Source: a virus
Lineage: Duplodnaviria > Caudoviricetes
Direction: 5' to 3' (one strand)
IMG/VR virus record: IMGVR_UViG_3300032295_002162
Span: 1-60,063 of that record
DNA: 60,063 bases
The translations under genes were made by a program, and so were the position numbers. Within the stretch, counting starts at the first letter, position 1. Each line of letters starts with the position of its first letter. A model generated the notes under the pieces. That model worked only from the letters and a program-made list of their open reading frames with translations. It ran no database searches and was not told the DNA's origin. This document shows, one piece after another, positions 1 to 38,454 of this stretch.

Positions 1-230
1 CACTTCGAACCGCAGGTGTGGAAAGTTTTTCAAGTTGGAGGGGAACTTTCCGAGCGCTAACCGAAACCCAATAATACTATTTCGTATTTGATTACTTTAC
101 TTTAAGTCTTTTACAACTTTGGTGAAATCCAATCTAAACCACACTAACCTACTACTTTTAAGTTTCAATTTTAAGTCTCAAACTAACTTGCTCTCATTAA
201 TGCGAACTCAATGTTAAACAGACTACGATG

Positions 231-302
231 AGCGGTGCGAAGGTTTTGCTCCCCCTCCTCCACACTGGAATGTGTGATGTGCTACTATTACACCAATACC
301 GC
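231..302 (-). tRNA. Non-canonical tRNA-Gly-like RNA (TCC inside an 8-nt anticodon loop; degenerate D- and T-loops)
   Basis: Minus strand folds as GCGGTAT-TG-GTGT/AATAGTA/GCAC-A-TCACA/CATTCCAG/TGTGG-AGGA-GGGGG/AGCAAAA/CCTTC-GCACCGC-T. Has Gly identity elements G1-C72, C2-G71, G3-C70, U73 and CC in the anticodon. No encoded CCA. Confidence 0.75.
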
Positions 303-309
303 TTATAAA

Positions 310-1170
310 AATAAGGATGAGAATACTCCGTATCGTAAACCAGCTTTAGAAAGATTATTGTTTCCTTTCGTTTCCACATCCTTTTGAGATGTACCGATTC
401 AATGCAGGTTATTTAAGATTAACCACTCTTTAAGTTGTAACTTACTCACCTATTACTCCCCTTATTCAATCCTGCCGAACTGATTCAACCTTGCGGGTCT
501 ATAAGCTTTTCGTAGATATCACATCCGCCTTGCGAGCGTTTGTGGCTGGGAACATCTCCCAACTATGTATGCACCTTTCGGTCACAACTGATGAACACTC
601 TTGCTTTATGTTTATTTATAAGTTTTTACACCGAAGTAAAAATAAAGTTTTGGTTCGTAGATGGATTCAGGTAGTGGTTCACCATAGGCTTCGTTATCTT
701 TTGAACAACGAAATACCAAACTACCCGATGTGTTATCCCTAACACCATACTTCAAGTCATCTTCATTAGAAGGGGTTGGTGCCCCAAACTAAAGGATAGC
801 AACGCCACCACGCGTTTACAGTCTTATCTTACTACCTTTCGTATAGCTTGATGTTAAGACCACTTTTGTATTGAATCACGCAATAGTATGAAGGGATTAA
901 GTTCATATTTCTTACATTAATTCTATGAGTTATTCTTATTGGTGTTCCCACCTCAACCAAAGAATCTACAATTCCTCAGTCATTCCGGCTCTTCGATGAT
1001 AGTGTTACCCCCACCTACAAAGTCAGAATGATATCTCACTTGCTTACTCGAGCTCCAAAGGTTTTGAAGCCGCAAGATGCTTAACCAAACATCTCACTTT
1101 ATCCTACTTTCGTAGTTTATTTAACGACCATAAGCGGCCACTCTATTATGTAACTCAAGGTTACTATATA
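310..1170 (-). ncRNA. Large ornate structured ncRNA, GOLLD-like (boundaries approximate)
   Basis: ~860 nt with higher GC than its flanks and no credible ORF. Many GNRA-capped hairpins on the minus strand (CTAC-GAAA-GTAG, GACC-GAAA-GGT, ACCC-GCAA-GGTT). AT-rich linker with a UUCG hairpin at ~605-655. Own promoter, boxA-like leader, adjacent to tRNAs. Confidence 0.6.
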
Positions 1171-1184
1171 GAATTATTTCAATA

Positions 1185-1195
1185 TTTTAAAGAAC
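1185..1195 (-). promoter_or_regulatory. boxA-like antitermination element in the leader of the large ncRNA
   Basis: GTTCTTTAAAA on the minus strand, similar to rrn boxA; a near-identical motif precedes the tmRNA. Confidence 0.5.
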
Positions 1196-1544: not shown

Positions 1545-1571
1545 TATATTTACAAATTTTTTAATTTTTTG

Positions 1572-1644
1572 TTGCGAGGGAAGGATTCGAACCTCCGACC
1601 TTTAGGTTATGAGCCTAACGAGCTACCACTGCTACTACCTCGCG
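1572..1644 (-). tRNA. tRNA-Met(CAT), initiator type
   Basis: CGCGAGG...TTAGG-CTCATAA-CCTAA...GGTTCGAATCC...CCTCGCA-A; C1xA72 mismatch typical of fMet; CCA not encoded. Confidence 0.95.
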
Positions 1645-1698: not shown

Positions 1699-1719
1699 TC
1701 TTTTTTTAAATTTTTTTAG

Positions 1720-2086
1720 TGGAGGTGAAGGGAGTCGAACCCTTGTCCAAATACGGATTTAATAAACCTCATTCACAAGCTTAGTTAGTTTTTCTTAACT
1801 AACAAAATAGATAAAGATTTATACATTCATTATCATTAATGTTTCCAATTCGATTTCGGGTTCAATTGGTATCCACCTTTGTACACATTCTATTTAAAGT
1901 CCCACGATGTGTGCGGGAGGGATTAGGCTGCTAGAGCGTAATCAGCACCAACGAATGCCATAGCATCTTCGAAGGTCATTGTAGATAATTCTACGTCATT
2001 TATTGTTCGATAGGTATTTACGGATTTCCATCTAACCCGACTTGCAACTTACCAACTCATCGCACCTGTCAAAACCAGGCACCCCC
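1720..2086 (-). ncRNA. ssrA: tmRNA
   Basis: 5' GGGGGTGCCTGGTTTTGACAGG and 3' GGGTTCGACTCCCTTCACCTCCA form an acceptor stem with G3.U70. Tag frame 1997-1923 encodes DVELSTMTFEDAMAFVGADYALAA*. Confidence 0.95.
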
Positions 2087-20291: not shown

Positions 20292-20328
20292 TTGAATATA
20301 ATTCGATTTAATATAAATATAAAAAAGT

Positions 20329-20859
20329 TTAAGAATGTTTCACCAATTGAATCTTCTTTCTAATATTGGTATAATTTGCCAATCTTTTACGAACAGCCTC
20401 TACATTTTTAGGTGAATCATCAACGAAATACACATTATCAAACCCATTTTTCTTAATCTGGTCCTCTATCCAATCTGCTTTGGATTCTGGGTTATTATCA
20501 CCCAATGCTACTACAAATACATCCCTAATTCCACTATCTTTGATGAAATCATATACCGGTTTGTATGCTGCTCTAGCAGTTAGGATATATACTGCTTTAT
20601 CCGAATCCTTAGCCATATTTTTCAATAACTCAAAATATCCCTTTATTACCTTCGGATTCTTAACTTGTTGGAAATCTTTAAAATCAAATTGGTCACCTGG
20701 CTTTTCTTTGTAAACTGCGTATTGGCCGGGCGTTAGTTTGAATTTTCTCCCTTCTTTATTTGTAACGTATATATAAGAACTCGTTTTGACAAGTGTATCA
20801 TCAAAGTCAAAAACTCTCAATTTTTTATCTTCCGTAAACAGTGCTCTTGATATTGGCAT
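20329..20859 (-). CDS. HAD-family phosphatase (PNK 3'-phosphatase-like)
   Basis: FDFDDTL, ILTAR, K, FVDDSPKN. Confidence 0.85.
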   Translation of the reverse strand: MPISRALFTEDKKLRVFDFDDTLVKTSSYIYVTNKEGRKFKLTPGQYAVYKEKPGDQFDFKDFQQVKNPKVIKGYFELLKNMAKDSDKAVYILTARAAYKPVYDFIKDSGIRDVFVVALGDNNPESKADWIEDQIKKNGFDNVYFVDDSPKNVEAVRKRLANYTNIRKKIQLVKHS

Positions 20860-20860
20860 T

Positions 20861-21178
20861 TTATCCGTTAATTTGTTGTCTTTTTGCTTTTGGAAGCGCT
20901 TTTTCCAACTTATCGTTTTCTTTTGTAAGGAATTCTACCTTAACACTCAATGCTGCCACTTCTTTTGTAAGAGCTAATACCATAGAACGTAATTCATCCT
21001 TTTCTTTAGATGATTCTTGTAATAGTGTTTCTAATTTAGTGATTCGGTCTTTGCAATCGTGCTTGATGAATTCATCATCTCTTTCCCTTCTTTGAGCTCT
21101 TTTCTCATAATAACGGAATGCAGATGCTCCACCTAATACTGTGATTGCCGTTATCAATACTGAATACATATTTTCCAT
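20861..21178 (-). CDS. Membrane-anchored coiled-coil protein (possible holin-like)
   Basis: N-terminal TM helix followed by heptad repeats. Confidence 0.6.
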   Translation of the reverse strand: MENMYSVLITAITVLGGASAFRYYEKRAQRRERDDEFIKHDCKDRITKLETLLQESSKEKDELRSMVLALTKEVAALSVKVEFLTKENDKLEKALPKAKRQQING

Positions 21179-21189
21179 TGGTTATTGTT

Positions 21190-21636
21190 TTATCTTGTTT
21201 TACCCATTACATGCCAAGCCATTTTTATCATTTGTGGAATTGGCATTTTAAATAAAGATTCTTTGTTTTTATCTGATAGTGCATTATATAATTTTAAAAC
21301 CACATTTGCACTTTGAACATCTACTAATGTTGTTTTTCCACCATCTTTTACTTTTAACGCAGAATGCGTTTTTACAATGTTATTAAATGTATCGATTAGT
21401 GCTTTTTCTCTTGGATTTATTGATTCTGATATTGGGTGATGTCCTCCACATCCACAATCGTGAACTTCGTTACAGCCACAAGAATGGCCTTCTTCTATTG
21501 GATTTTCAATTGGCTCTTCTTCAGTTTGAGGTAAACCTGTCCCTGCTCTTTCCAATCCCTTATCATCAAATACTGATTCTTTTACGGAATTTCTAACAAT
21601 TTCCCTTACTATTTTTCTTAATTCGCTGATACGCAT
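21190..21636 (-). CDS. Putative virion protein
   Basis: MRISELRKIVREIV N-terminus; HSCGC/HDCGC motifs. Confidence 0.6.
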   Translation of the reverse strand: MRISELRKIVREIVRNSVKESVFDDKGLERAGTGLPQTEEEPIENPIEEGHSCGCNEVHDCGCGGHHPISESINPREKALIDTFNNIVKTHSALKVKDGGKTTLVDVQSANVVLKLYNALSDKNKESLFKMPIPQMIKMAWHVMGKTR

Positions 21637-21679
21637 ACTTTTCTTATATGTTTAATATACATAAATATAAGAATTATTA

Positions 21680-22564
21680 TTAAGGGTTACTTTTTCCATC
21701 CATTTTTTCTACAAATTTCTTAGTCTCTTCCGCAAATAATCCCATTGCTTTGGTATAAAATTCGTTCTTTTTATCAAAACTAACTAATTTGCCCGAAAAT
21801 GATGGCGTTTTACGATGGATATCTTCTGCTATGTATATACCATCCAATATGTATTGTCTTATAGGATACCCTTTTTGTTGTAACCAACTAGCCATAGTCA
21901 TACTATATGTATCTTCAGGCCCATACCCCCCAAATGATTCGGGTATTTCGATGGTTTCCCAAAATGATTTAGAATATAGAGTATGCATTCCACAGCCAAA
22001 TTTGAATCCTGTCAGTTGTTTGGCCTCTATCTTATCTATATCCTGCATTGGAGCAGAATCATTAGCTGCTATACTATGAGCATATCCCAACTCCTTATCT
22101 AAGAAATCTCTGTGTGTTAAAACTGCCCAGCTTTCATCCCACCACTTTGGAAGTGATGGTGAAATTACATACATATCATTTAACTGATATGAGATATTCA
22201 ATTGGTATTTTAGTAATTTTGGAGAAAATGATATATCGGTATCACAAAATACAAATTGGTCATAATCCAACTTTACACTTTCCCTTTTTTGCTGGGTAGT
22301 TCCCCATAGAGAATCATCGGTTGTAATTTCATTTATATTTGGAATTCCTTCAAATGCCAAATTGAATCTTCGGATGAAATAATCTTGCTTCAATTCACTG
22401 TTTTCCCAATCAGTTAATTTTGGATTAAGATTAAGTGATGCTTTAAATGCTATAGCATCAGTTTTTTCTAAATATGCCATAGAATAACGAAACAATAGCA
22501 TCAGTCTATATAACTGCTCTACTTCGTTTGGCATCACATGGATGCAAATTAAGGTTTTTTTCAT
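21680..22564 (-). CDS. GT-A fold glycosyltransferase-like protein
   Basis: FCDTD DxD motif; FGGYGPED. Confidence 0.7.
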   Translation of the reverse strand: MKKTLICIHVMPNEVEQLYRLMLLFRYSMAYLEKTDAIAFKASLNLNPKLTDWENSELKQDYFIRRFNLAFEGIPNINEITTDDSLWGTTQQKRESVKLDYDQFVFCDTDISFSPKLLKYQLNISYQLNDMYVISPSLPKWWDESWAVLTHRDFLDKELGYAHSIAANDSAPMQDIDKIEAKQLTGFKFGCGMHTLYSKSFWETIEIPESFGGYGPEDTYSMTMASWLQQKGYPIRQYILDGIYIAEDIHRKTPSFSGKLVSFDKKNEFYTKAMGLFAEETKKFVEKMDGKSNP

Positions 22565-23748
22565 ACTAACTTTTCTTGGTAGTATGAGTTATTTAGATTT
22601 GCCAATTCCAATTGGTATTCTATCATACTATTTATTGTTATTTTAAATATATCTAACTCAAATGTTCCAACTTCACCACTATCTTTAATTATATAGTGTA
22701 AGTTTTGGATAATTTTAAATGATTCATTGGTTAATTTAGTTCCATCAAATTCAACAACAATATCATTCTCGCCAATTGGGTCATTGTGTCCTATGATTAG
22801 AACTCTCTTATCAATATCAAACAGTGTATTCTCTCGTTCCATTTCGATGTAGTCCTGAGTTCTTCCTATCTCAAATACTTCATCTACATAAATTCTATCA
22901 CACCAAGGTTCTAATGCTTCTAATAACATTAAGTTACACTTATTTACAACAAATGCAACGTTGAATTTAGGTGGAATAATTGGATGTTGAAACTCATCGT
23001 TTTGTATCCAACTTCCCCATTTTCTTAAATAATTCCTACTAGCTTTTTTAGTTTGAATTTTGAAATAATCATCATCCTTACCAACAGCTTCAGTCCATCT
23101 ATGCCCTCTACAAGTTAGGTGATACACAAACGCATCTCTACTTTGAACTAATTTATAACCTGATAATATCCATCTTTGAAAAATATCACTATCTTCATAC
23201 GGAAATGGTGCGAATAACGGATCATGTCCACCCATTGCCTGAAAATCTTCTTTGTAAAGAATCCAAGGTGCGAACATACCCGTTGTAGTTACATCTTGCC
23301 ATTGACTTGATTGTTGCTCCAAACAATAAGTTTCAAACCCATCAATATCCAATGAATCAAAATCCATCCCAAAATCTTTGATTATCTTTTCTTTTCCGGC
23401 AGGGTGTAATGGTGGTTCAATTCTAGTTCCACAAACAACAACACCTTTCTTAAGATGTTTCATTAAGTTTGAAACATAGTTAGGACCTACAATCATATCA
23501 GCGTGTAGGATACCCACAACTGCGTTAGTAGCCAATTCTATACCTTTATCATAGAGAATAGTATGCCCAACTCTTTCTTCACTTCTGAATGAAATACAAT
23601 TTTGTTCTTGTATCCATTCCCAAGTTCCATCAGTTGAACCATCATCCAATAATACTAACTCAGCATCGGGTTCATTTCTCTGAATAGATTCTACAACATT
23701 TTTCAAGTGTCTTAAATTATTATAAGACGGTATTACGAAACTTATCAT
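22561..23748 (-). CDS. GT2 glycosyltransferase
   Basis: ISFVIPSYN, DDGSTDGT, HADM, GGHDPLF...EDSD. Confidence 0.9.
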   Translation of the reverse strand: MISFVIPSYNNLRHLKNVVESIQRNEPDAELVLLDDGSTDGTWEWIQEQNCISFRSEERVGHTILYDKGIELATNAVVGILHADMIVGPNYVSNLMKHLKKGVVVCGTRIEPPLHPAGKEKIIKDFGMDFDSLDIDGFETYCLEQQSSQWQDVTTTGMFAPWILYKEDFQAMGGHDPLFAPFPYEDSDIFQRWILSGYKLVQSRDAFVYHLTCRGHRWTEAVGKDDDYFKIQTKKASRNYLRKWGSWIQNDEFQHPIIPPKFNVAFVVNKCNLMLLEALEPWCDRIYVDEVFEIGRTQDYIEMERENTLFDIDKRVLIIGHNDPIGENDIVVEFDGTKLTNESFKIIQNLHYIIKDSGEVGTFELDIFKITINSMIEYQLELANLNNSYYQEKLV

Positions 23749-23776
23749 TTTATGTGTTGTTTATGTTTATATAATG

Positions 23777-24469
23777 TTATATTTGAGTTATTTCTGAGAT
23801 TGAATCTTCAGATTCAGGTATAAAATTATTGTACCATATTTTATTTTGTATATTTGCAACTATTTTATATGGTATGTAATTATCCAATGATATGATATCA
23901 AAATACTTTATCATATATTTTTTGTTATCAGAATTATTATCAAGCTTCACACCTTCTCTATCCTCTATGTAAAATTTACAAAGAGCTTGCTCAGGTATAT
24001 CATAATGTATATACATATCATTATCTAAAACGAAATTGCTGGCGGCTTCCTCAAACATTTTATTAATATTTAGAGTCTTTCCTATTAAAATATGATCACT
24101 TATATGATATGGATATCTATTCCATTCTCTAAAAAAAACAGGAGAAGTTAATATTTTATCATCATTTTTTAATAAAATATCTATTGCATGTTCTAAATTT
24201 GAATACTCTTCATCCCCTCTCAATTTAATTACATATTTAGTAGTTACAAATGATAATCCTGCAATAGTGCTTTGTATTTGTAAATTTTTATTCTGAACTC
24301 CAGGGTCTTTAGGATATTTTGATTTTATTAAGGTAATATTTCTATCACACTTTACATCAGAATTTTCCCAAGTTGAAACAATAATAGGTATATTAGGGTA
24401 TGATTTATAATAAAAATCATACGTTGATTGTAATATTTTACCTTGAATTAATAATGTAACCTGCTCCAT
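23777..24469 (-). CDS. WavE-like protein
   Basis: LIQG, IIVSTW, NLQIQSTIAGL, IKLRGD, HISD. Confidence 0.75.
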   Translation of the reverse strand: MEQVTLLIQGKILQSTYDFYYKSYPNIPIIVSTWENSDVKCDRNITLIKSKYPKDPGVQNKNLQIQSTIAGLSFVTTKYVIKLRGDEEYSNLEHAIDILLKNDDKILTSPVFFREWNRYPYHISDHILIGKTLNINKMFEEAASNFVLDNDMYIHYDIPEQALCKFYIEDREGVKLDNNSDNKKYMIKYFDIISLDNYIPYKIVANIQNKIWYNNFIPESEDSISEITQI

Positions 24470-24496
24470 ATATTAATTATAACGTTTTGCCAATTT

Positions 24497-25204
24497 TTAT
24501 AATTTAAATTTACTACCTTTGGAATATGCCCATAAATCAAAACCGGTATTGTAATTTATATAATTAACAAATCCGTTTTCTTTTATAAAAGAAATTGTTG
24601 TATCTGAAACACAATGATGGTCGTGGAAAAATATAATAGAATCATCATTTAGATAATTTAAAATTACATTAACATCGGCTTGTATTTGTTCAAATGAATG
24701 ACCCCCATCTATAAAAGCAAAATCTAATTTAGTATTTTCAAAGTGCTTACTTAATATAGATGGTACATCATCCGGAGACCATCCTATTTCTAAAGAAACA
24801 ATTTCAGATAAATTATTGTTATTTATCAAATTTGATGCCATTTTATATCCATCTGCGGTTTCGGGTGTTTTTATTAGTTTTGTACCTATACCATATTGTT
24901 GGGAATGATTAAAATGCTCTTCCACATATGCATCCATAGTTACTAATTTACCATTTGTGATTTTCAATCCTTGTCCAATAACACAAGAAGATATACCAAA
25001 TGCAGTTGCTATTTCAAAACCAAATTTAAGATTATTTTTTAGTATAATATTATATACAATTTTAGCTTCAGTTTCTTTTAAAGACCAAGGATGAAAATGA
25101 TTGGATAGTTTTAAATTATAATCACCATTATTATATATCTTTTCTAATTTAAAATCTAAATTAAAAGATTCAGATTGTTCTACTAATTCATCAAATGTTT
25201 TCAT
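24497..25204 (-). CDS. Class I SAM methyltransferase (Methyltransf_24-like)
   Basis: EIATAFGISS, DFAFIDGGHS, IFFHD. Confidence 0.85.
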   Translation of the reverse strand: MKTFDELVEQSESFNLDFKLEKIYNNGDYNLKLSNHFHPWSLKETEAKIVYNIILKNNLKFGFEIATAFGISSCVIGQGLKITNGKLVTMDAYVEEHFNHSQQYGIGTKLIKTPETADGYKMASNLINNNNLSEIVSLEIGWSPDDVPSILSKHFENTKLDFAFIDGGHSFEQIQADVNVILNYLNDDSIIFFHDHHCVSDTTISFIKENGFVNYINYNTGFDLWAYSKGSKFKL

Positions 25205-25226
25205 TTCTATTTGTTTTTATATTATT

Positions 25227-26603
25227 TTATATTTTTTTATAAGCTTTTACATATATCCATTGAGGATGTCCGCTATCTGAATAAGATTCTCTAATTTCTG
25301 TTGTTATATTTATAAATCCTATATTTGTTAAATCCGTTATAACATCTTCTTCATTTTGAACTCTCACATCCCAAGCTGAATTAGTTCCATTAGCTTCATA
25401 ACAATTTTCAAAGTAAGAACTTCTAGGGCCTAAATCGGATTTTAAATCATTACCATACCCCATTTGAAATGAAAATAACCCACCAGGTTTTAGGGTTCGT
25501 AACAAATCAGTTATTAATGATTTTCTAATATCATAAACAGGTATGTGTTGTAATGCAATTGTTGACATTATAAAATCATATTCATTACTCATCAATTCGG
25601 AAACATCAATACCATTATTACAATACCAACCACTATTTTGATTTTTATATGTTTCTTTATTATGGTTTATATTACCAATAGATAAATCAATACCATCCAC
25701 TCTATCCCAATCACATAGGGTTAACATATTACTTACATTTCTTCCTTTACCACATGCAAAATCCAATGCAACTTTACCATCCCAACTTGTTTTATCTTTC
25801 AAATCACCCAAAAGAATATTCCAATAATCTTCATTACTATTGTGTTCTTCGTGATTTGATGTTCCCAAAGAATATGCTCTTTTTTGCATTTGGGTGTATT
25901 TGTTTTCTGAATTCATACTTTCTATTTTTTCTAATTGGAATCGTATCATTCCGCTTGGAATTGTTACACCATTATGGTCTTTGTTATAAATTATATTATC
26001 TAATATATCAATTTTTATTTCATTTTCGTTTAAAAATTCACGCAAGCAATTTTCATTACTAAACTCACCATGATTTAATTCATGTCTATTTTTATTATAA
26101 TAATTAGTTACGAAATCCGATACAACATTCATAACATTTCTATCCCCAATAAAAAATTGGTCATTTAATGATATATCAAAATCCCAATGTTGTGTTTGAA
26201 AATAAACTCCTCTTAATTTTGGACAATATAAGGTATTTGGTTTTAAATTTGATAATAACTCTTCAGTTATATTTCCATATGTAAAATTTAAATCACATCT
26301 ACTTTTTATATACCAATCATATACATTTGGAGTATTATCAATAACATTTTTTAAATTCCAAAATTGCCAAAACCCACATTGTCCCGGTTCGTTATTTCTA
26401 TATTTACTCCAATTAGTTTTATTAAAATCTATAGATGGGGTTTCAAACAAATTCTTAAGATGCCATCCACTGTTTAACCAATCATCTTTATAATGAGACA
26501 AGCACGATGCGTAAGTATCATAATTACCTATTATATTATTATGATTTTGTATTATAGTTGAATTACCCCTATATGGTCCTGCTAATATGATTGCTATATT
26601 CAT
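25227..26603 (-). CDS. Glycan-biosynthesis domain fused to class I SAM methyltransferase
   Basis: N-terminal LAGPYR...KSRCD...NDQFFIG; C-terminal LDFACGKGRN...LQHI...LKPGG. Confidence 0.8.
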   Translation of the reverse strand: MNIAIILAGPYRGNSTIIQNHNNIIGNYDTYASCLSHYKDDWLNSGWHLKNLFETPSIDFNKTNWSKYRNNEPGQCGFWQFWNLKNVIDNTPNVYDWYIKSRCDLNFTYGNITEELLSNLKPNTLYCPKLRGVYFQTQHWDFDISLNDQFFIGDRNVMNVVSDFVTNYYNKNRHELNHGEFSNENCLREFLNENEIKIDILDNIIYNKDHNGVTIPSGMIRFQLEKIESMNSENKYTQMQKRAYSLGTSNHEEHNSNEDYWNILLGDLKDKTSWDGKVALDFACGKGRNVSNMLTLCDWDRVDGIDLSIGNINHNKETYKNQNSGWYCNNGIDVSELMSNEYDFIMSTIALQHIPVYDIRKSLITDLLRTLKPGGLFSFQMGYGNDLKSDLGPRSSYFENCYEANGTNSAWDVRVQNEEDVITDLTNIGFINITTEIRESYSDSGHPQWIYVKAYKKI

Positions 26604-26608
26604 TTGAA

Positions 26609-27238
26609 TTAATTAACTATCCAAAATCGTCTTTGGTTTTCATTAAATAGATTATTATCAGTATCCTCCCAATCATAAAAATGCGCATAAGCATTTAATG
26701 AAGTATCTTTAAATTTTTGATATTTCTTATTATTATTTTCAATAATACTTTCAACAAATGATGTTGTGGGGATTCCCGCATTATTAGTCAAAGATTGATC
26801 GTATCCTTCCTCATATCTAAAATATAATTCAGATTTAAAACTATCATATATCACAGTTTCAAAGAACATTAAATCGCAATTGTTTAGGCAATTTTCTAAA
26901 TGCTCTTTATGAAACTTTTCTAAGTGATAATACAATCCAAAATTGATGATTATATCCCACTTACCCCACTTCCATTCATTTGTATCTAAATCTGCTTGTT
27001 CTACATTTAATTCAGGATAATATTCTTTTATCTTTTGTATATTTTCCAATCTACCTTCAACAGCTAAAACTTCAGCTCCGATTGAATTAAAATATGCACT
27101 AAAATAACCATTGCAAGCCCCCAATTCTAATATGCGTTTTCCTTTAAAAAAATCAGTAGGATATTTTGATAATATAAATTGCAACCTAGCAGTCTGCCAA
27201 TCTGGATGATACCAACTATCTTTTATATTATTTACCAT
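26609..27238 (-). CDS. Class I SAM methyltransferase
   Basis: RILELGACNG, VEGR, GLYYHL. Confidence 0.85.
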   Translation of the reverse strand: MVNNIKDSWYHPDWQTARLQFILSKYPTDFFKGKRILELGACNGYFSAYFNSIGAEVLAVEGRLENIQKIKEYYPELNVEQADLDTNEWKWGKWDIIINFGLYYHLEKFHKEHLENCLNNCDLMFFETVIYDSFKSELYFRYEEGYDQSLTNNAGIPTTSFVESIIENNNKKYQKFKDTSLNAYAHFYDWEDTDNNLFNENQRRFWIVN

Positions 27239-28598
27239 AATTTTCCAAATAGTATTTTAAATCTTCCGGTGTTCCAGTTCCCCACATTTTAGGAACATCA
27301 AAAGTTCTGATAACTCTGCCCCCTTCTATTGCTTGATTGAAAACAGGACATACATAGAACTCATTGTTAACTCTTACATTTTTTGAAATCATTTGTTCTG
27401 CGTATTTTACAAAATCAGAACCATGCTTCCAATAGTAGAAACCTACAGTTGCCAAATCTGAAATTGGATTCTTTTCAGCTACTTCAGTTACAATACCATT
27501 ATCATCTATCTTAGCAAAACTCCATTTAGGATGGGTTGCTTTGAAAGTTACAATACCACCATCCGCATCAGTTTCATTCATCTTATAGAAGAACTCGTTT
27601 GAATCCCATTCTACAAATTGGTCTGAATTAGCGAAGAATAGTGGAGCATCTGAATCAATATACTCTTTAGCCAATAATGCCGTGCAAGCTGCTCCTTCGG
27701 TTAATCCATCAACTTCAACTACCTTACAATTAGGTGCGATTAAGTTTAATAGGGTATCTAAGTTATACTTCTCCCTATGTTCTTTCTGAACAACGAATAC
27801 AAAGTTAGCATCGATGTTTAAATTTTCAACTACCATTTGAATCATTGGTTTACCATTAACATCGATTAATGGTTTAGGAAATGTGTAACCTGCAGCTGCG
27901 AATCTACTTCCAGCTCCAGCCATTGGGATAAGAACATTCATCTTACCACCTTGCCATTTTGGAATACTCATAATTTTATTTTCTTTTAATTTATTTGATA
28001 TTTTTTCAAAAGTTAAATCCGATGGATTATCTACTCTTAAAACGTTTGCTCTACTTCTACTTGCTGCCAATAAACCATGTGGAGAATCCTCTACAATTAG
28101 AGTTTCTTCCGGCAAACATCCCATCATACTCATTGCCTTCCAATACATTTCAGGGTGCGGTTTAGAGTTCTTCACATCCTCATTAGAGATGATTAAATCC
28201 ATAAACTCAATAAGACCTATCTTTGATAACATAACCAATACAGACCTTCTAATTGAGTTTGAAGCACATGCCAATTTATATCCCATATCTCTTAATCGTT
28301 TAAATACGAGAATCAAATGGGTATTTGGTTGCAATTCCGATATTGCTTCTATTGTTAGTTGTTGTTTTCTATTCCAAACTGTTTCGTATGTGTTTGGATG
28401 TAAACCTTTTTTCTCAGTAAGTAGTTCTAATTTTTGATTAGTTTTAAGTCCATCATAGATAGATAGATGTTCTTTTTCTGTAATAACGTATTTGTTACTC
28501 TGTCCAATTTCCCAAAGGGCTTGGTTAAGTGTTTTAAAGTGTATTTCTTTAGCTTCAACTAATACGCCATCCAAATCGAATATAATTAATTTTGTCAT
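27228..28598 (-). CDS. HAD phosphatase fused to sugar-phosphate nucleotidyltransferase
   Basis: FDLDGVL...KPHPEMY...VEDS; IPMAGAGSRF...PKPLI...GTPEDL. Confidence 0.9.
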   Translation of the reverse strand: MTKLIIFDLDGVLVEAKEIHFKTLNQALWEIGQSNKYVITEKEHLSIYDGLKTNQKLELLTEKKGLHPNTYETVWNRKQQLTIEAISELQPNTHLILVFKRLRDMGYKLACASNSIRRSVLVMLSKIGLIEFMDLIISNEDVKNSKPHPEMYWKAMSMMGCLPEETLIVEDSPHGLLAASRSRANVLRVDNPSDLTFEKISNKLKENKIMSIPKWQGGKMNVLIPMAGAGSRFAAAGYTFPKPLIDVNGKPMIQMVVENLNIDANFVFVVQKEHREKYNLDTLLNLIAPNCKVVEVDGLTEGAACTALLAKEYIDSDAPLFFANSDQFVEWDSNEFFYKMNETDADGGIVTFKATHPKWSFAKIDDNGIVTEVAEKNPISDLATVGFYYWKHGSDFVKYAEQMISKNVRVNNEFYVCPVFNQAIEGGRVIRTFDVPKMWGTGTPEDLKYYLENYGK

Positions 28599-29290
28599 AT
28601 TATTCCTCTTTCAAATGGGTTAATGTTATATATATTAAATAGTGTATTTAATTCTTTTTCGTATTCATAATAGTTCCATTTTCCTTTATTAATTGCGGTT
28701 GCAATATATGGAAAAACTGAACTATCATTGTGGTAAATTCCTCTTCGTTTCTCATTACCCAAGCTTACCATATAGTGTCCATCTTCTACAGGAACTGCAT
28801 CCTCAAATTCCCAAATATTTAATGATTCTACTTTAGATAATAAATCTAAAAATGTTTTTGTTTTTATTATAGTTGGTTGGATTGAAAATTTAGTATCCCT
28901 ATTGTTGATAATATTTTTATCACCTTCCCAGCTTTGGAAATTACCAACAATTGATATTAATTTTATACTCTTAACTTTATCATCGGCTACATAACCAACA
29001 TATTTGTTTAGATTATCAATCATAGGAGATTGCATTAATATCATATCTTCATGTAAGAATAATACAACATCTTCTTTTATTTGAGGAAGTATCTCCTTCC
29101 ATCTCTCGGTATATGGTTTTGAATCATCATATTGTATTTGGTTATACTCTGATAATCTATCATCGATTTTATTTACAGCTACATATACCTTCACATCAGG
29201 CATATATGATTTTAATTCACCAAAAAAGATTGGCCATAAATCACTTACATCCGTATGTGTGTAAACTACTATTGGTGCATTTATTCCCAT
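28595..29290 (-). CDS. Glycosyltransferase-like hypothetical protein
   Basis: FLHEDM, IWEFE, KGKW. Confidence 0.6.
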   Translation of the reverse strand: MGINAPIVVYTHTDVSDLWPIFFGELKSYMPDVKVYVAVNKIDDRLSEYNQIQYDDSKPYTERWKEILPQIKEDVVLFLHEDMILMQSPMIDNLNKYVGYVADDKVKSIKLISIVGNFQSWEGDKNIINNRDTKFSIQPTIIKTKTFLDLLSKVESLNIWEFEDAVPVEDGHYMVSLGNEKRRGIYHNDSSVFPYIATAINKGKWNYYEYEKELNTLFNIYNINPFERGII

Positions 29291-30009
29291 ATTGTATCTA
29301 AATTTATTCTATTGTCCCAAAGTTTGTTATTAATCATCCACCACTTATAAAATGCAATTGAGTTCGAAAGGTCACCTCTATTATTTTCAATTGAAGTTGC
29401 GAATTTATGAAAATCCGAATCTATATACATTGATTGCTCTAAGAAATCATATAAGGTTGTAAATTCCACCATAACCTCAGGCGAACCATAAAACCACATA
29501 TCAGCTGGTCCCATATGAAAATGATTCCAATCTGCCATATAAATTTTATCAGCAATTATATCAGTTTGAAAGTTTATACATTGAACTGCAAATGGATTTC
29601 CTAAACCAGGTCCTGATATATTTCTATTAATTCTACCCAAATCAAAACGAGCTTTGATGATAATATCATATTTTGTATTTGGTTGTTGGTGTGGTAACTT
29701 CATTGCTTCGGTTACACTATACAAATGTGATAATACCGATTGCGGTGAACGAGGACAATTTTGTAATGTATCTAATCCTCTTTCTTTAATTAATTCACTA
29801 AAATCTTTTTGTGGTTCAAATATAGCTGCTTTAGGTTGATATATTAATTCTATTAAATCTTTTTTATCAACTTCCCAACTATGAATGAATACATCCACAT
29901 CACCTTTATCTAAGATATGTTTTTTAATATGCTCATGTCCATCAAATCCATTAGAAGTCGAATCGTGGTTTGAATCAAATAACCCATGTAAGCAAAGTGC
30001 TATTTTCAT
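29281..30009 (-). CDS. Glycan-biosynthesis-like hypothetical protein
   Basis: MKIALCLHG, DVFIHSW, YDIIIKARFD, DMWFYG. Confidence 0.65.
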   Translation of the reverse strand: MKIALCLHGLFDSNHDSTSNGFDGHEHIKKHILDKGDVDVFIHSWEVDKKDLIELIYQPKAAIFEPQKDFSELIKERGLDTLQNCPRSPQSVLSHLYSVTEAMKLPHQQPNTKYDIIIKARFDLGRINRNISGPGLGNPFAVQCINFQTDIIADKIYMADWNHFHMGPADMWFYGSPEVMVEFTTLYDFLEQSMYIDSDFHKFATSIENNRGDLSNSIAFYKWWMINNKLWDNRINLDTIWE

Positions 30010-30641
30010 TGTTTGTAATGTTTATGTCGAAACACTTCAGGCAATCGATCAGTAAAATGACTTAAACTTTGATGGTCTGTCATCCAATAGTGGCCATATC
30101 CATGTTTAAAAAATATATTATTTTCTTTTGTTAACTTTTTTATTATAAAGTTTGCTTTGGCATCAAGTCCTAACTCATACATTTTTTTTGTAAACCCAAA
30201 TTCTGGATATGGTGGATTTGTATCTATAGTAAATAATGCTATCATATCATCGATATCACCTTCCATAAAAAAATCAGCTACATATCCATCTTCGTGTTGA
30301 ATAAATGAATAGAAATTAATAAAATTAGTATCAAACAATTTTAATAATTCATTTGCATTATTTGGTTCTAAATCACATCTCCATTTTATCACTCTATCAT
30401 ATCCCAATTCTTTTGCTTTTAAAAATCCATTTAAAGATGATATTCTTTGTAATTGAAAATTTAATGGACCATAATTGGTAGGATGTTGATTATATAAAAC
30501 TATATCAGTTTCTTCATATGCAGTTTTGTCAGCATCTGTCCAAGTTGAAAATATTAAAGGAATTCCTTCAAATTTTTCTTTTAATGCTTTTACAAAATCT
30601 TTGTCTGTTCTTCCCTGAACAACTACACAAACCTTACTCAT
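30006..30641 (-). CDS. WavE-like protein
   Basis: VVVQG, IFSTW, QLQRISSLNG, IKWRCD. Confidence 0.65.
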   Translation of the reverse strand: MSKVCVVVQGRTDKDFVKALKEKFEGIPLIFSTWTDADKTAYEETDIVLYNQHPTNYGPLNFQLQRISSLNGFLKAKELGYDRVIKWRCDLEPNNANELLKLFDTNFINFYSFIQHEDGYVADFFMEGDIDDMIALFTIDTNPPYPEFGFTKKMYELGLDAKANFIIKKLTKENNIFFKHGYGHYWMTDHQSLSHFTDRLPEVFRHKHYKQ

Positions 30642-31273
30642 TATTCTATAACTTTATTATTTTTGAAAACAGTAAATTCGGTTAAATCTCTATAACCATT
30701 TAATTCACCTTGGTCTGAATTATGTAATGGTAAGTTTTGAAACATTGCCAAACCATGTGCTGCTTGTTGCGGAGTCATATACATATTCCATCCACAAAAT
30801 GTAATATCATCATCCTTATAATACTTCTCACTTCTACCTTCGTAACGTGCTTTCTTAAACCAATCAGCTGCTTCAGCATTATCAGTTAGAATCATACCAC
30901 CTTTCCAAATTGGAAGTATCTTTTTAATATGGAATGATAATCCCATAAATGTTCCGGGCATATACATATCTTTTGTTAATCTCTTAGCCGCATCCCAAAT
31001 AGGATATGGTTTCAATTGGTATGCACCTACCCAATGATTTGTTTCAGGTCTTTTATCAAAGATAACCTCACCACCAGCGTGTATAATTGATTGTGGAACT
31101 GAAAGATATGTTTTGGATGGGATGGTTACCTCTTTAACTTCATTGTATTTACAAATTAAGAATAGTGCATTTGTGCAACTATCAATCGAAATAGCGTAAG
31201 GTGCTCCAGTGTAGTTAGCAATTTCCTCTTCAAACATTCTTACAATCTTGTAAGGGTTGTGTAACATTGGCAT
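30641..31273 (-). CDS. DegT/DnrJ/EryC1/StrS aminotransferase, short form
   Basis: FEEEIANYTGAPYAISIDSCTNAL, DAA, SFHIKK...GGMIL; start probably MPMLH. Confidence 0.85.
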   Translation of the reverse strand: MPMLHNPYKIVRMFEEEIANYTGAPYAISIDSCTNALFLICKYNEVKEVTIPSKTYLSVPQSIIHAGGEVIFDKRPETNHWVGAYQLKPYPIWDAAKRLTKDMYMPGTFMGLSFHIKKILPIWKGGMILTDNAEAADWFKKARYEGRSEKYYKDDDITFCGWNMYMTPQQAAHGLAMFQNLPLHNSDQGELNGYRDLTEFTVFKNNKVIE

Positions 31274-31275
31274 AA

Positions 31276-31902
31276 TTAATCGTTTTCGTTTATTATTTCT
31301 ATACAAAGGATATTCTTATCATTCACCATAACAAGTCTACCATCTTTTGTTTCAAACTTTGTGAACTGTCCTTGCTTAATCGAATCAGTATCAACTCCAT
31401 TAAATGTTCTTTTTTCCCCACCAACAAAGTGTAGAATTTTAGAAACATATTTTCCTTTTTGTGTGATTGAACTCTTTAGGCTTACCATTTTGGTTTTCAA
31501 TTTATAGTATGTAAATCTTTCATCTTTACCACTTACTTCAAATCCACAACTAAGGAATAATTTATCACTAGCGGCATTACCATGCTTTACTTTAGCGTAT
31601 GCAGTTGGCCATATCTTCATACATTCACCAATCATAAATTTACCAACTCCCATACCTTGAAAATCAGGATGTGTGCAAACTCTAATATCATCTTCAATAA
31701 CACCAACATATCCTGCAGGCTTTCCATCAACCAAAGCTATACGATAATTTTTACCATACTTTTGCATATAGATTTGTTGTTGCTGATATTCTATAATTGT
31801 TGTTTCTATAAATCCATCAACTACTCTACCATCTTGTCTTAACTCTCTAACGAAGTTCCAATACTCAGGCCCACATTCTACTAATTTTAATTCCATATAC
31901 AT
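31276..31902 (-). CDS. GNAT acetyltransferase with extra C-terminal domain
   Basis: THPDFQGMGVGK, NAASDKLFLSCGF. Confidence 0.8.
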   Translation of the reverse strand: MYMELKLVECGPEYWNFVRELRQDGRVVDGFIETTIIEYQQQQIYMQKYGKNYRIALVDGKPAGYVGVIEDDIRVCTHPDFQGMGVGKFMIGECMKIWPTAYAKVKHGNAASDKLFLSCGFEVSGKDERFTYYKLKTKMVSLKSSITQKGKYVSKILHFVGGEKRTFNGVDTDSIKQGQFTKFETKDGRLVMVNDKNILCIEIINEND

Positions 31903-32666
31903 ACTTTATTTAAATCACCACCCCCAACATATCCCCAAAATCTTTGAAGATAATCTCTATCAGTTGGCATATTCATCATTGGTGTCAAGCACGTCCCAAT
32001 ATCAATATAAGAATTATTAGGACAATCTCTAAATAATTCATAAACTGCCAAGTTTGTAAAAGTGGATGCTGAAAAAAGGAATACATGGTTTTGGATATTA
32101 TTTTCTTTAATCCATTTTCTAATTTCATCAATTTTATCATAATCATTAATCATTGCGTTATAACCTACTCTAAAATCTTTTACAAAAAATGGTAATTTGG
32201 ATAAATCTGCATTTTCATGTCCAATAAATACACAATCTTTACTATAAAAAATTGGAAGTATATGTTGTATAAAAAGTGGATAGTTTCCGTTTACCCATAG
32301 ATTTGCCCAACTTAAACTTTCATCATCACCACCATGTAAATCTACCTGCCAATCAAATGCTTCTTTACCTACACAACAACTACAACTAATACCTTTATAA
32401 TAATTTGGTTGTCTATGTTTGTATGCTTCAATTAATCTATCTCTAAATTCCGAATGGATTTCAGGATTAAATTCTTTGTGATCTTCAGATTTGTATATTG
32501 ATGGATGAACTCTATCATCTACTTGATATACATCTCCTGCCAATTTTAAAACTTTATTTTGTAAAATAAATAACTCACCATCAGAATATCTTGCAAATGC
32601 AAATGGTTCATTGTTTTGTATTTTTCCTACGAACATTCCAAAATGTTCTCTAAAATTCTTCTGCAT
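31887..32666 (-). CDS. GT-D/DUF1792-like protein
   Basis: FARYSDGE...YIDIG. Confidence 0.55.
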   Translation of the reverse strand: MQKNFREHFGMFVGKIQNNEPFAFARYSDGELFILQNKVLKLAGDVYQVDDRVHPSIYKSEDHKEFNPEIHSEFRDRLIEAYKHRQPNYYKGISCSCCVGKEAFDWQVDLHGGDDESLSWANLWVNGNYPLFIQHILPIFYSKDCVFIGHENADLSKLPFFVKDFRVGYNAMINDYDKIDEIRKWIKENNIQNHVFLFSASTFTNLAVYELFRDCPNNSYIDIGTCLTPMMNMPTDRDYLQRFWGYVGGGDLNKVCIWN

Positions 32667-34405: not shown

Positions 34406-34408
34406 AAG

Positions 34409-35248: not shown

Positions 35249-35877
35249 TATAATGTTTCGTAGTAGTTATTTTGTCTTTCTTGTCTTTCTATTTCTTTAT
35301 GATGATACAAACAATACTCCTCATCGGTTGGTAATACTGACAATGTATTATATCCAATAATTCTCTCATGCACCTTTCCTGTCCATTCTATTTCCGATGT
35401 TCTTCTGTAGATTCTGGTTTGATAATCCGGAAAGTTTACCCAACCATGTTCATTTAGTTTCCATCCCCATTTTTTAACATGCATATCAGTTAATCCTTCT
35501 ACGGTGTTAATACGTGGAACAAAGAAAAGGTCTACATCTTTATTATATTCCAATAATTGGTGAATATTTTCAACCAAATATTCATTTGGTATTTCATCTG
35601 CATCTACTTGAAAAATAAAAATACCATTTGCATGGTTTTTTAAATTGTTTTTATAAGATGCGAAATCACCAGCTAATGGAAATGATATAACCTTAATTGA
35701 TTTGTGTATTTGAGATACAATTGCAAGATACTGCTTAACCGCATCGGTAGCAGAATCTTCATCGTATTGGATTAATATCTCATCTTCCGATTTTATTTTT
35801 GGTTGTAAATAATCAACCAATTTTGTAATCTCTTTAAGCTCATTACAAACTGTAATAGCGTATGTAACATTTATCAT
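35248..35877 (-). CDS. GT2 glycosyltransferase
   Basis: QVDADE, PDYQTRIY, KVHE. Confidence 0.85.
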   Translation of the reverse strand: MINVTYAITVCNELKEITKLVDYLQPKIKSEDEILIQYDEDSATDAVKQYLAIVSQIHKSIKVISFPLAGDFASYKNNLKNHANGIFIFQVDADEIPNEYLVENIHQLLEYNKDVDLFFVPRINTVEGLTDMHVKKWGWKLNEHGWVNFPDYQTRIYRRTSEIEWTGKVHERIIGYNTLSVLPTDEEYCLYHHKEIERQERQNNYYETL

Positions 35878-36326: not shown

Positions 36327-36327
36327 A

Positions 36328-37176: not shown

Positions 37177-37177
37177 A

Positions 37178-38449: not shown

Positions 38450-38454
38450 AACTT

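Follow-up and report, generated by a model that had tools for sequence, protein, structure and literature searches.

GOLLD RNA is among the largest non-coding RNAs of bacteria and phages and forms a 14-mer cage. The locus analysed here raises the question of why such an RNA is followed, after a few nucleotides, by a tRNA-shaped module with strongly altered loops, and whether that module is a working decoder, a relic of a tRNA array or an element kept for another role. The module lies near the start of a 60,063-nt stretch of DNA from a large freshwater phage (hereafter, the window), positions 1 to 60,063 of the IMG/VR virus record IMGVR_UViG_3300032295_002162 (Duplodnaviria; Caudoviricetes). 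In the order in which the minus strand is read, the features of this end of the window are the following.

1717–2086, minus strand: phage-encoded tmRNA, heading the same-strand RNA gene cluster (ARAGORN; Rfam RF00023, 107 bits).
1571–1644, minus strand: tRNA-Met(CAU) with a C1/A72 mismatch, upstream of GOLLD on the same strand (ARAGORN; Rfam, 56.2 bits).
1163–1191, minus strand: weak candidate promoter immediately before the 5' end of GOLLD, with TTTAAA and TATAGT separated by 17 nt and 9 of 12 positions matched in a consensus scan.
729–1140, minus strand: variable 5' domain of GOLLD RNA, with an approximate 5' boundary (blastn and RNA-library contigs).
314–728, minus strand: conserved 3' domain of GOLLD RNA (Rfam RF02032, 316.9 bits against a gathering score of 150, model positions 1–416).
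303–313, minus strand: A/U-only spacer UAUUUUUAUAA from the last GOLLD hairpin to G1 of the tRNA-like module, proposed from its sequence as an RNase P leader.
231–302, minus strand: tRNA-Gly-derived tRNA-like module, with G1 at 302 and a discriminator U at 231 (Rfam, minimum-free-energy fold and covariation).
14–230, minus strand: element X, conserved and non-coding, about 215 nt, starting right after the module (at C74) and stopping before the next tRNA-like module.
1–13, minus strand: opening 13 nt of another tRNA-like module, truncated by the contig end; they match the beginning of the module found after element X in the relative L192.

The extent of GOLLD is set by blastn matches with LR756502.1 and LR745206.1, whose GOLLD regions resemble the window up to position ~1139, and by RNA-library contigs from 4 runs, which reach position 1136 in the 5' domain. 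In the comparison with annotated phages, the GOLLD region resembles only two unannotated megaphage records, at 70–74% identity. The promoter consensus scan as a whole was not enriched, with 8 sites found against 10.2 expected from shuffles. Two relatives, L290 and L291, show the same order of tmRNA, tRNA-Met, GOLLD and Gly-like module; the sequence retrieved for L287 ends within the tmRNA, and L288 and L289 have no tmRNA match.

Read from 302 to 231, the module is a 72-nt cloverleaf with four stems and the dimensions of a tRNA, as seen in the sequence, its alignment to the Rfam tRNA model and the minimum-free-energy fold. At its minimum free energy, 228–305 on the minus strand adopts precisely this cloverleaf (−23.2 kcal/mol, z = −2.35); a fold as stable was reached by 4 of 200 shuffles. 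The acceptor stem (GCGGUAU/GCACCGC) contains a single A6.C67 mismatch and a U7.G66 wobble; the D stem is GUGU/GCAC with the loop AAUAGUA; the anticodon stem UCACA/UGUGG carries an 8-nt loop, CAUUCCAG; and the T stem GGGGG/CCUUC, with two G.U pairs, carries the loop AGCAAAA and is followed by the discriminator U. The stems and loops described in the original prediction, namely one A.C pair in the acceptor, two G.U pairs in the T stem, the 8-nt anticodon loop and the AGCAAAA T loop, are thus borne out by the fold and the Rfam alignment; its position was also right, and the strand, which it did not give, is minus. It was correct in part on the elbow: in place of the canonical G18 G19 with U54 U55 C56 and A58, the window has A18 G19 with A54 G55 C56, so that G18 and the two T-loop uridines are gone, whereas the G19-C56 contact, thought to be missing as well, is kept. 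The anticodon loop differs likewise from the canonical seven bases with U33 and unpaired positions 32 and 38, having eight bases that a C32-G38 pair could close to a 6-nt loop. By contrast, the bacterial glycine identity set (U73, G1-C72, C2-G71, C35 and C36; PMC9976931, in the part of that source available) is complete. The expectation that standard scanners would pass over the module was also correct: ARAGORN called no tRNA at 231–302 in the window, and the Rfam tRNA model (RF00005), although aligned over its full length (model positions 1–71; E = 0.011 in a 2.3-kb search), scores 26.5 bits, below its gathering score of 29. A family model, R1, of which the window sequence is itself a member, scores it at 86.7 bits.

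Homologues show how the module is maintained. The set comprises at least 68 distinct sequences from phage and metagenome contigs, all beside GOLLD, and counts out of 68 refer to it; GOLLD adjacency and the G1-C2-G3/CGCU ends are fixed in it by the search pattern and filter. All four stems are kept in the 68. Stem cells are paired in 95.9% of cases as against 80.0% in shuffles, with none of 500 shuffles reaching the observed value, and two-sided, compensatory changes affect 14 of the 21 stem pairs, including covariation at all five pairs of the anticodon stem. The elbow is coupled without exception: positions 18/19 of the D loop and 54–56 of the T loop occur as AG with RGC (41 sequences), GG with UUC (23) or GA with UUU (4), and never in mixed form (0/68), a coupling that accounts for the retained G19-C56. 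Within the 41 distinct sequences of the remodelled AG/RGC subgroup, the anticodon stem exists in 17 different, fully compensated versions and position 58 is variable, while in a sister subgroup the T stem has been shortened to 4 bp by a coordinated 2-nt deletion that removed one base from each strand. Sequence entropy is about zero at C35, C36 and A37, which are invariant in 68/68, and 0.8–1.9 bits at stem positions. The base after the discriminator (position 74) is C in 68/68 across 8 different downstream trinucleotides, and the same C follows 96 of 101 genuine tRNAs from the arrays of these phages; judged by this conservation, the 3' end of the module is probably handled as that of a tRNA would be.

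The module is therefore a real cloverleaf, and it is not decaying. A dead duplicate from a tRNA array, its stems still paired only through youth, would suit a sequence that falls below the Rfam cut-off, escapes ARAGORN, carries mismatches at 6-67 and 7-66 of the acceptor and lies in surroundings rich in tRNA genes. Nevertheless, covariation, elbow coupling and loop bases far more conserved than the stems essentially refute this reading, as does the orderly loss of a T-stem pair in one subgroup, and we consider it very improbable; moreover, the module persists beside GOLLD 3' domains whose mutual identity, within the remodelled subgroup, is just 64–99% (median, 77%). Specialisation rather than decay, and the compensatory changes that were to be sought among aligned homologues, had both been put forward from the sequence of the window and both hold. 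A single origin of the remodelled elbow was rejected: elbow type is discordant with the tree of GOLLD 3' domains, on which it must have changed 8 times, and branches with good support impose no fewer than 3 of these changes. This distribution fits module swapping, or a pair of paralogous copies of which the first was lost, and not one clean clade.

If the module is maintained, does it decode? A tRNA-Gly reading GGN codons, or a +1 frameshift suppressor reading four bases through its enlarged loop, could be expected to keep C35 and C36 in the anticodon, A37 next to them and the tRNA-type 3' signature C74, as the family does, and the loop has 8 nt in 41 of the 68 (CAUUCCAG in 34, CGAUCCAG in 4, CAUACCAG in 2 and UAUUCCAA in 1). 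Frameshift suppressors of the sufD type are tRNA-Gly derivatives with one extra anticodon-loop base, a canonical body and an open loop. Unlike these, the family does not hold the loop at 8 nt but varies it between 6, 7 and 8 nt, even beside nearly identical GOLLDs, and its elbow is remodelled, with U54 and U55 gone and position 58 variable. Positions 32 and 38 are C and G in 66/68, and the pair would close the loop to 4–6 nt; one homologue has U32-A38 instead, consistent with a genuine 32-38 pair. A 7-nt loop with U33 occurs in only 4/68. Furthermore, two related phage genomes, G002 (100% complete) and G003, possess genes apart from the module for tRNA-Gly(UCC), whose loop is the normal CUUCCAA, and for tRNA-Gly(GCC). 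Given the closable loop, the scarcity of 7-nt loops with U33, the variable length and these ordinary tRNA-Gly genes, decoding is unlikely for the window module, and we assign only a very small probability to any working decoder; the frameshift suppressor that the original prediction listed among possible roles is disfavoured on the same grounds. A kissing interaction between the loop and GOLLD was also considered and rejected. The GOLLD 5' domain contains a complementary GGAAUG at about −680, but a comparison of 20 loci showed no covariation between it and the loop: GGAAUG can accompany CGUCCAG loops, for instance, and CAUUCCAG loops are found with altered sites.

The position of the module points elsewhere. 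G1 lies 12 nt past the end of the GOLLD model on the same strand, and on the minus strand no terminator-like site was found at 303–313 or anywhere else between GOLLD and the window start. The spacer measures 6–12 nt in the 68 homologues, and 559 of its 570 bases are A or U. Searches with GOLLD-independent patterns returned Gly-like matches that adjoin GOLLD in 10/10 cases and, in another search, 9/9. What else may follow the RNA was examined in 76 distinct GOLLD loci, collected without bias, by means of ARAGORN, the family profile, a strict test for UUCRA T arms and a test for hairpins followed by T runs. Among same-strand ARAGORN tRNAs within 260 nt of GOLLD, 14 of 16 start at +8 to +18, and ARAGORN-called tRNA-Met genes occupy this slot at 12 loci. 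The 76 loci also hold 2 further Gly-like modules, 31 terminator-like hairpins and 6 uncalled T-arm modules, 4 of which are acceptor/T-arm minihelices; at one locus (L083), a GAAA tetraloop stands in place of the anticodon loop. Nothing recognisable by the four tests follows GOLLD at 23/76 loci, and a close GOLLD relative, L012, has no module. Since tRNA modules or terminators stand at the same site, they look interchangeable as GOLLD endings, and the minihelix and tetraloop forms show that the anticodon is dispensable there. A custom acceptor-plus-T-arm detector was discarded, as it fired at 55 of 78 loci but also at 851 of 1,560 shuffles. In 185,579 species genomes of cultured or metagenome-assembled hosts, a pattern joining the GOLLD end to the module gave 16 matches, none with GOLLD or a tRNA-like fold.

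Transcript evidence covers the two flanks. In RNA-library contigs, the GOLLD portion is deeply covered by 4 runs, each from a different study, and element X is represented in 2 of these, with contigs at 55–219 (X6) and 93–190 (X1). Positions 232–308 appear in none of the fragmentary contigs of the 4 runs, which include no bridge from GOLLD to the module, and the adjoining GOLLD bin (309–385) appears in one run; small structured RNAs are often lost from such libraries, and the gap speaks neither for excision nor against it. The alignment of element X (A2, 7 sequences) is highly conserved, with double changes at 2 of 53 predicted pairs. Rfam assigned no family to the downstream elements at E up to 0.1, nor to that of the window at E up to 10. 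The layout is punctuated, with tRNA-like modules on both sides of element X.

The reading that we favour, with roughly even confidence, is that the module is a non-decoding paralogue of tRNA-Gly(UCC), kept as tRNA-type punctuation, and that RNase P together with tRNA 3' maturation sets the 3' end of GOLLD. A processing signal for the upstream large RNA had been one of the roles suggested at the outset, and it is the best contextual fit to a module that begins 6–12 nt after GOLLD, where tRNAs, minihelices or terminators stand at other loci. In the mechanism that we propose, GOLLD, the tRNA-like module, element X and the further tRNA-like module would be co-transcribed, and the tRNA-maturation machinery of the host would recognise the stack of acceptor and T arm together with the retained G19-C56 elbow. 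RNase P would cleave on the 5' side, and trimming and CCA completion would follow on the 3' side. Excision would leave GOLLD with a 3' end bearing an A/U tail of ~11 nt (303–313), create the 5' end of element X and release a discrete RNA of ~72–75 nt. Several features could weaken recognition by RNase P or RNase Z, namely A6.C67 and U7.G66 at the base of the acceptor stem, the loss of U54 and U55, the lack of an invariant A58 and, in the sister subgroup, the 4-bp T stem. In many relatives a terminator-like element (X2) lies within a few nucleotides of the module, so that punctuation is not obviously needed there. Nor does punctuation alone explain invariant C35, C36 and A37 amid drifting stems. 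From these bases, an acceptor end of glycine type and the closure by C32-G38, we speculate that a factor specific for glycine tRNAs, such as glycyl-tRNA synthetase (GlyRS), also binds the RNA once released.

Three other readings take the same observations further. A released tRNA that accepts glycine without decoding, charged by GlyRS once excised and completed with CCA, and kept off the ribosome or EF-Tu, could coexist with punctuation, and we regard it as rather unlikely. It would draw on the 68/68 invariance of C35, C36 and A37 and on a glycine identity set that is complete in the window and in 10/10 GOLLD-linked matches of a pattern that leaves the acceptor unfixed, even though the search pattern itself dictates G1-G3 and CGCU for most of the set. 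The family also has features of the staphylococcal non-proteogenic tRNAs discussed below (G55-C56 in 41/68; a possible C32-G38 pair in 66/68), and the U32-A38 variant suits a real 32-38 pair. On the other side, sister GOLLD lineages use minihelices or tetraloops, which could not hold the glycine anticodon identity, and the record of the window and four related phage records contain no match over the cut-off to FemAB (PF02388, 0/5) or Acetyltransf_6 (PF13480, 0/5), although a Fem-family partner could be supplied by the host. The roles that might be envisaged for such an RNA include glycyl donor, GlyRS sink or sensor, and decoy for tRNA-directed host defence. More doubtful still is that the module stays covalently attached to GOLLD as a 3' domain, an exonuclease-resistant cap or a mimic displayed 14 times on the nanocage. 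The remodelled elbow and the 6-67 and 7-66 mismatches might blunt RNase P cleavage, terminator hairpins take the same place at 31/76 loci, the short A/U spacer is conserved and of fixed length, and Kretsch et al., in the available portion of their report, picture GOLLD cages with covalently linked tRNAs from the linker region. Against permanent attachment, C74 is kept just as in the genuine tRNAs of these phages, the slot at 12 loci holds a bona fide tRNA-Met that is presumably released, and element X continues directly after the module; with no terminator between the two, some cleavage at the module is needed in any case. We hold it similarly doubtful that the module is a glycine-identity tRNA mimic, made one-to-one with the cage RNA, that binds GlyRS or another tRNA-Gly-specific host factor through its closed loop and A18/G55 elbow, outside translation, and serves as ligand, cargo or decoy of a nanocage function. 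Should this be so, the module and element X would form part of a conserved RNA operon, GOLLD – tRNA mimic – X – tRNA mimic, in large freshwater phages.

Tailoring a tRNA fold for the punctuation that we favour has parallels. In mitochondria, tRNA folds within polycistronic transcripts are cleavage marks that free the neighbouring RNAs, and in T4-like phages small stable RNAs sit within the tRNA cluster. Those marks are functional tRNAs, whereas the proposed mark in the window is a non-decoding paralogue reserved for the task, its elbow remodelled. The closest positional parallel is mascRNA, the tRNA-like fold at which RNase P cuts to form the 3' end of MALAT1 (PMC8457004, PMC4824109, both in the portions available). 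As there and in MEN-beta, a large structured non-coding RNA is followed directly on its 3' side by a module shaped like a tRNA, on the same strand and with no intervening terminator; the anticodon arm of the module does not serve decoding, and excision of the module is proposed here to make the 3' end of the large RNA. MALAT1 differs in being eukaryotic and nuclear, while the phage module is clearly derived from tRNA-Gly, retains C35, C36 and an entire D arm, and has a cleavage that is so far predicted. The staphylococcal non-proteogenic tRNA-Gly species, as described in the accessible part of PMC7826273, have UGC for UUC in the T loop, altered D and T arms, a 6-bp anticodon stem and a 5-base loop. 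The phage modules resemble these NP1–NP3 RNAs as extra copies of tRNA-Gly(UCC) type with G55, changed D and T arms, an additional anticodon-stem pair and preserved glycine identity; in the same account, NP1–NP3 are chromosomal, have a usable CCA end, feed Fem transferases and are not linked to a large non-coding RNA, unlike the modules of these phages, in whose five records no Fem-family gene was found. As for GOLLD itself, the available parts of the literature report nearby tRNA islands, a Met-tRNA located upstream in the case of env-38 and, within the RNA, tRNAs or a pseudo-tRNA. The window agrees with that association in having GOLLD within a phage tRNA cluster, and departs from the nearby genes and internal linker of those accounts in having a tRNA-like module at a fixed distance past the 3' end, followed by element X. 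In these parts of the literature, we found no description of a conserved non-decoding 3' tRNA-like module together with element X; older accounts of flanking tRNAs could overlap with it.

[quoted passage not shown] For tRNA architecture, too, the family serves as a natural experiment, in which G18/U55 has become A18/G55, or G19-C56 has become A19-U56, and the L-shape appears to be kept despite the rebuilt elbow; part of the same experiment is the closing of the anticodon loop while C35 and C36 remain invariant. Standard tRNA finders miss such modules, and annotations of phage tRNA clusters consequently under-report them. GOLLD, moreover, probably belongs to a longer punctuated RNA operon with a further conserved, as yet unnamed, RNA-like element. 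In 7 of 8 relatives this element is followed by ...AUAAGCGG and a D arm, whereas L192 has a start of the window type.

The tRNA-Gly-like module lies in a cluster of RNA genes at the low-coordinate end of the window, a 60,063-base record with a CheckV completeness of 31% whose large ORFs are all located on the minus strand. The cluster comprises the following features, in the order of that strand.

2086-1717, minus: phage-encoded tmRNA, followed by a tRNA-Met
1644-1571, minus: tRNA-Met(CAU) with a C1/A72 mismatch
1191-1163, minus: weak promoter-like site just upstream of GOLLD
to about 1140, minus: GOLLD 5' domain, with similarity to two unannotated megaphage records and RNA-library contigs up to 1136
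728-314, minus: conserved GOLLD 3' domain (Rfam RF02032; 316.9 bits, cut-off 150)
302-231, minus: Gly-like module, its first base 12 nt past the end of the GOLLD model
~230-14, minus: element X, a conserved stretch of ~215 nt that follows the module here and in the closest relatives
13-1, minus: opening of a further tRNA-like module, truncated where the contig stops and matching the module after X in locus L192

From GOLLD to the window start, the minus strand has no terminator-like site. The order tmRNA, tRNA-Met, GOLLD, Gly-like module and then a tRNA array is also seen in loci L290 and L291; the L287 sequence ends within the tmRNA, and a tmRNA match is absent from L288 and L289.

The original prediction of a cloverleaf at 231..302 holds, with the same stems and loops when read on the minus strand: an acceptor stem GCGGUAU/GCACCGC with an A6.C67 mismatch and U7.G66, a D arm (stem GUGU/GCAC, loop AAUAGUA), an anticodon arm (stem UCACA/UGUGG, 8-nt loop CAUUCCAG), a T arm (stem GGGGG/CCUUC with two G.U pairs, loop AGCAAAA) and U as the discriminator. 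This is the minimum free energy structure of the module (-23.2 kcal/mol, z -2.35), equalled by 4 of 200 shuffles. As had been anticipated for standard scanners, ARAGORN made no call for the module in the window, and the Rfam tRNA model aligned to it end to end at 26.5 bits, below the 29-bit cut-off (E 0.011 in a 2.3-kb search). Judged alone, the module would be a marginal match, and it is the homologues that settle the question.

Homologues were gathered with several patterns. A viral scan with a GOLLD-internal pattern returned at least 120 loci, and 93 of the matches listed are GOLLD (nhmmer, at least 50 bits); past the GOLLD 3' end, L023 and L037 carry module homologues whose loop is unchanged and whose anticodon stems differ by compensated changes. 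A pattern joining the GOLLD end to the first module bases matched 24 viral and at least 119 metagenome loci. With these and the loci of the D-arm pattern described next, and once chance matches were filtered out, the set came to 68 distinct tRNA-like sequences among the matches listed, with GOLLD adjacency, G1-C2-G3 and the CGCU end imposed by pattern and filter. Independent checks of GOLLD adjacency came from two other patterns. One, confined to the D arm and variable region and free of GOLLD and acceptor sequence, found 20 loci, 10 of which are the Gly-like element, right after a GOLLD in every case, the other 10 being an unrelated ordinary CAU-anticodon tRNA. The second GOLLD-free pattern, for the window's own remodelled-elbow type (A18 G19 in the D loop with RGC at 54-56 in the T loop), gave 9 matches, all on GOLLD-bearing contigs.

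The alignment of the 68 sequences bears out the earlier view of specialisation rather than decay, in that the compensatory changes sought among homologues were found, with both sides altered in 14 of 21 pairs. Standard pairs fill 95.9% of stem cells versus 80.0% after shuffling, a level reached by none of 500 shuffles, and slid registers pair only 41-57%. The anticodon stem covaries in all five pairs, with 99.7% of cells paired. Among the 41 remodelled-elbow sequences there are 17 versions of this stem, all fully complementary as listed, and in one subgroup a T-stem pair has gone through a coordinated deletion on both strands. As these 41 lie beside GOLLD 3' domains that are only 64-99% identical to one another (median 77%), recent, passive decay of the module is ruled out.

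Positions 18/19 and 54-56 occur in three combinations only, AG with (A/G)GC in 41 sequences, GG with UUC in 23 and GA with UUU in 4, with mixed forms in 0/68. GA/UUU is the classic compensation from G19-C56 to A19-U56, and AG/RGC preserves G19-C56 while altering 18 and 55 together; U8, A14 and A21 are invariant or nearly so. The elbow has thus been rebuilt, not lost: the canonical bases have indeed changed, but to describe G18G19 and TTC as missing overstates the loss, given these coupled combinations, the near-invariant bases and the retained G19-C56. In L026, from a distant GOLLD lineage, a minihelix at +5 to +52 after GOLLD has the T loop AGCAAGA, close to the AGCAAAA of the window, which may point to an alternative T-loop motif that recurs.

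Anticodon loops of the 68 sequences
CAUUCCAG: 34
CGUCCAG: 16
CGAUCCAG: 4
CCACCAG: 3
CCUCCAG, CUCCCAG and CAUACCAG: 2 each
CUUCCAA, CUUCCAG, CGACCAG, CAUCCG and UAUUCCAA: 1 each

At positions 32/38, 66 sequences have C/G, one has U/A and one C/A, so that the anticodon stem can gain one pair, leaving 4-6 loop bases. U33 in a 7-nt loop is found in only 4/68, and C35, C36 and A37 are invariant (entropy 0 bits versus 0.8-1.9 bits at stem positions). By these features it is probably not a decoding loop. Further down the array, the related phage genomes G002 (100% complete) and G003 encode a tRNA-Gly(GCC) and a tRNA-Gly(UCC) whose loop is the normal CUUCCAA. A covariance model of the family, which the sequences used in building it match by construction, scores GOLLD-linked copies at 75-88 bits, array tRNA-Gly(UCC) at 52-61 and other tRNAs below 41, and finds one copy in the window. 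In six loci (L158, L162, L164, L187, L193 and L239) the D arm of the Gly-like module contains an extra hairpin of 24 nt, whose own stem shows compensating changes; the cloverleaf is otherwise canonical.

In the 68 sequences the spacer from GOLLD to G1 is 6-12 nt long and A or U at 559/570 bases. Among the matches listed, 76 distinct GOLLD loci form an unbiased set, with 16 same-strand ARAGORN tRNAs within 260 nt. Of these, 14 begin at +8 to +18 (12 tRNA-Met, one Gly and one whose loop is odd), and two begin at +89 and +98, the latter (L083) after a tRNA-like. The Gly-like element occurs in 2 further loci, an uncalled T-arm module in 6 and a hairpin with a T-run in 31, and 23 have nothing recognisable after GOLLD. 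Among the uncalled modules, L061, L112, L122 and L049 carry acceptor/T-arm minihelices with a D-loop remnant that keeps GG, L083 a cloverleaf with a GAAA tetraloop as anticodon loop, and L026 the minihelix described above. The recurrent unit after GOLLD is therefore the acceptor/T-arm/elbow module, not the anticodon, with terminators alternating with it. In other lineages, the anticodon stem of several GOLLD-adjacent tRNA-Met is of the initiator-like GGG/CCC form.

On the 3' side, all 68 sequences have a C directly behind the discriminator, across at least 7 different downstream modules, as do 96 of 101 genuine array tRNAs of these phages. Element X, also present in L191, L192, L196, L209, L238 and L245, is a candidate new phage ncRNA: it is stop-rich, flanked on both sides by tRNA-like modules, highly conserved in 7 aligned copies (double changes in 2 of 53 predicted pairs) and without a match in an Rfam search. 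Related openings (…UCGUAGUCUG, …UCGUAGUGGUU and …UUCGUGGUC) follow a tRNA or tRNA-like in the distant lineages L102, L003 and L026. X2, a second downstream module of ~70 nt, is found just after a tRNA-like or minihelix in L023, L037, L061, L112, L141 and others; with a long stem closing on a T-run and a conserved interior (…AUGAGGCU…AACCGGAGCAUGACUUGA…), and no Rfam match, it looks like a structured terminator or small RNA.

The best-supported reading of the Gly-like module is tRNA-type punctuation. Its fold is under selection, its position fixed, its 3' signature tRNA-like and its presence redundant for decoding, and at the GOLLD 3' site it is interchangeable with tRNAs, minihelices and terminators. 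The module would be transcribed together with GOLLD and X and cut out by the tRNA-maturation enzymes of the host; cleavage by RNase P and release, which like co-transcription we infer, would set the 3' end of GOLLD and the 5' end of X. Parts of the stretch occur in 20 public runs, 19 of them recorded as RNA. In four RNA libraries from four studies, contigs cover GOLLD from ~380 to 1136, with depths adding up to between tens and thousands, and in two of the four they include element X (55-219 and 93-190). Bins 1156-1309 beside the covered GOLLD are empty, although the contig signal may still include DNA carry-over. Assembled contigs show neither ends nor strand. A rival reading has the module staying on GOLLD as an uncut 3' appendage.

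Punctuation alone explains neither the glycine-type acceptor end nor the invariance of C35, C36 and A37, features that match the bacterial glycine identity set (PMC9976931). A charged but non-decoding tRNA, or a decoy, is accordingly either a second layer or a rival. The module resembles the staphylococcal non-proteogenic tRNA-Gly in combining G55-C56 with altered D and T arms and one more pair in the anticodon stem (PMC7826273), but no Fem-family gene was found in five phage records. Elbow type is discordant with the GOLLD 3'-domain tree: mapping it there takes 8 changes, and well-supported branches force at least 3 of these. In several genomes the module is present twice, once after GOLLD and once after X or in tandem. 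Such a pattern would be expected if paralogous modules were exchanged or lost as these phages recombine.

We place the finding alongside two phenomena already known, processing elements that resemble tRNAs and the association of GOLLD with tRNAs. Earlier work places GOLLD near tRNA islands, with tRNAs or a pseudo-tRNA possible inside, and env-38 downstream of a Met-tRNA (Kretsch et al. 2025, PMC6582537, PMC12990946). The full-text literature searched on GOLLD contains no account of its maturation by RNase P, nor of a conserved tRNA-like without a decoding role at its 3' end; flanking tRNAs might be mentioned in Weinberg 2009 and Morgado 2020, which lie outside that literature.

A search for the GOLLD-module junction in a genome collection of 185,579 prokaryote species yielded no genome with one. 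Near-complete relatives measure 176-199 kb. Proteins encoded in the window include a T4-type family B DNA polymerase, clamp loader, ribonucleotide reductase and PD-(D/E)XK nuclease. Its heme oxygenase, ferredoxin-dependent bilin reductase and CobS-like AAA ATPase, genes typical of T4-like cyanophages, hint at a cyanobacterial host. The positions of these three and of further minus-strand genes are listed below; the Mom-family ORFs suggest adenine hypermodification of the phage DNA.

3229-4363 and 8488-9687, minus: heme oxygenase, bilin reductase and CobS-like ATPase
~20300-39900, minus: sugar-nucleotide/glycosyltransferase cluster (GT2, GT4, UDP-GlcNAc 2-epimerase, DegT aminotransferase, GNAT, NAD epimerase, methyltransferases)
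43755-44972 and 53929-54645, minus: two phage-encoded DruA-domain ORFs (PF14236, Druantia defence system)
55455-57012, minus: two adjacent Mom-family ORFs (PF25680, E 4e-45 and 1e-44)
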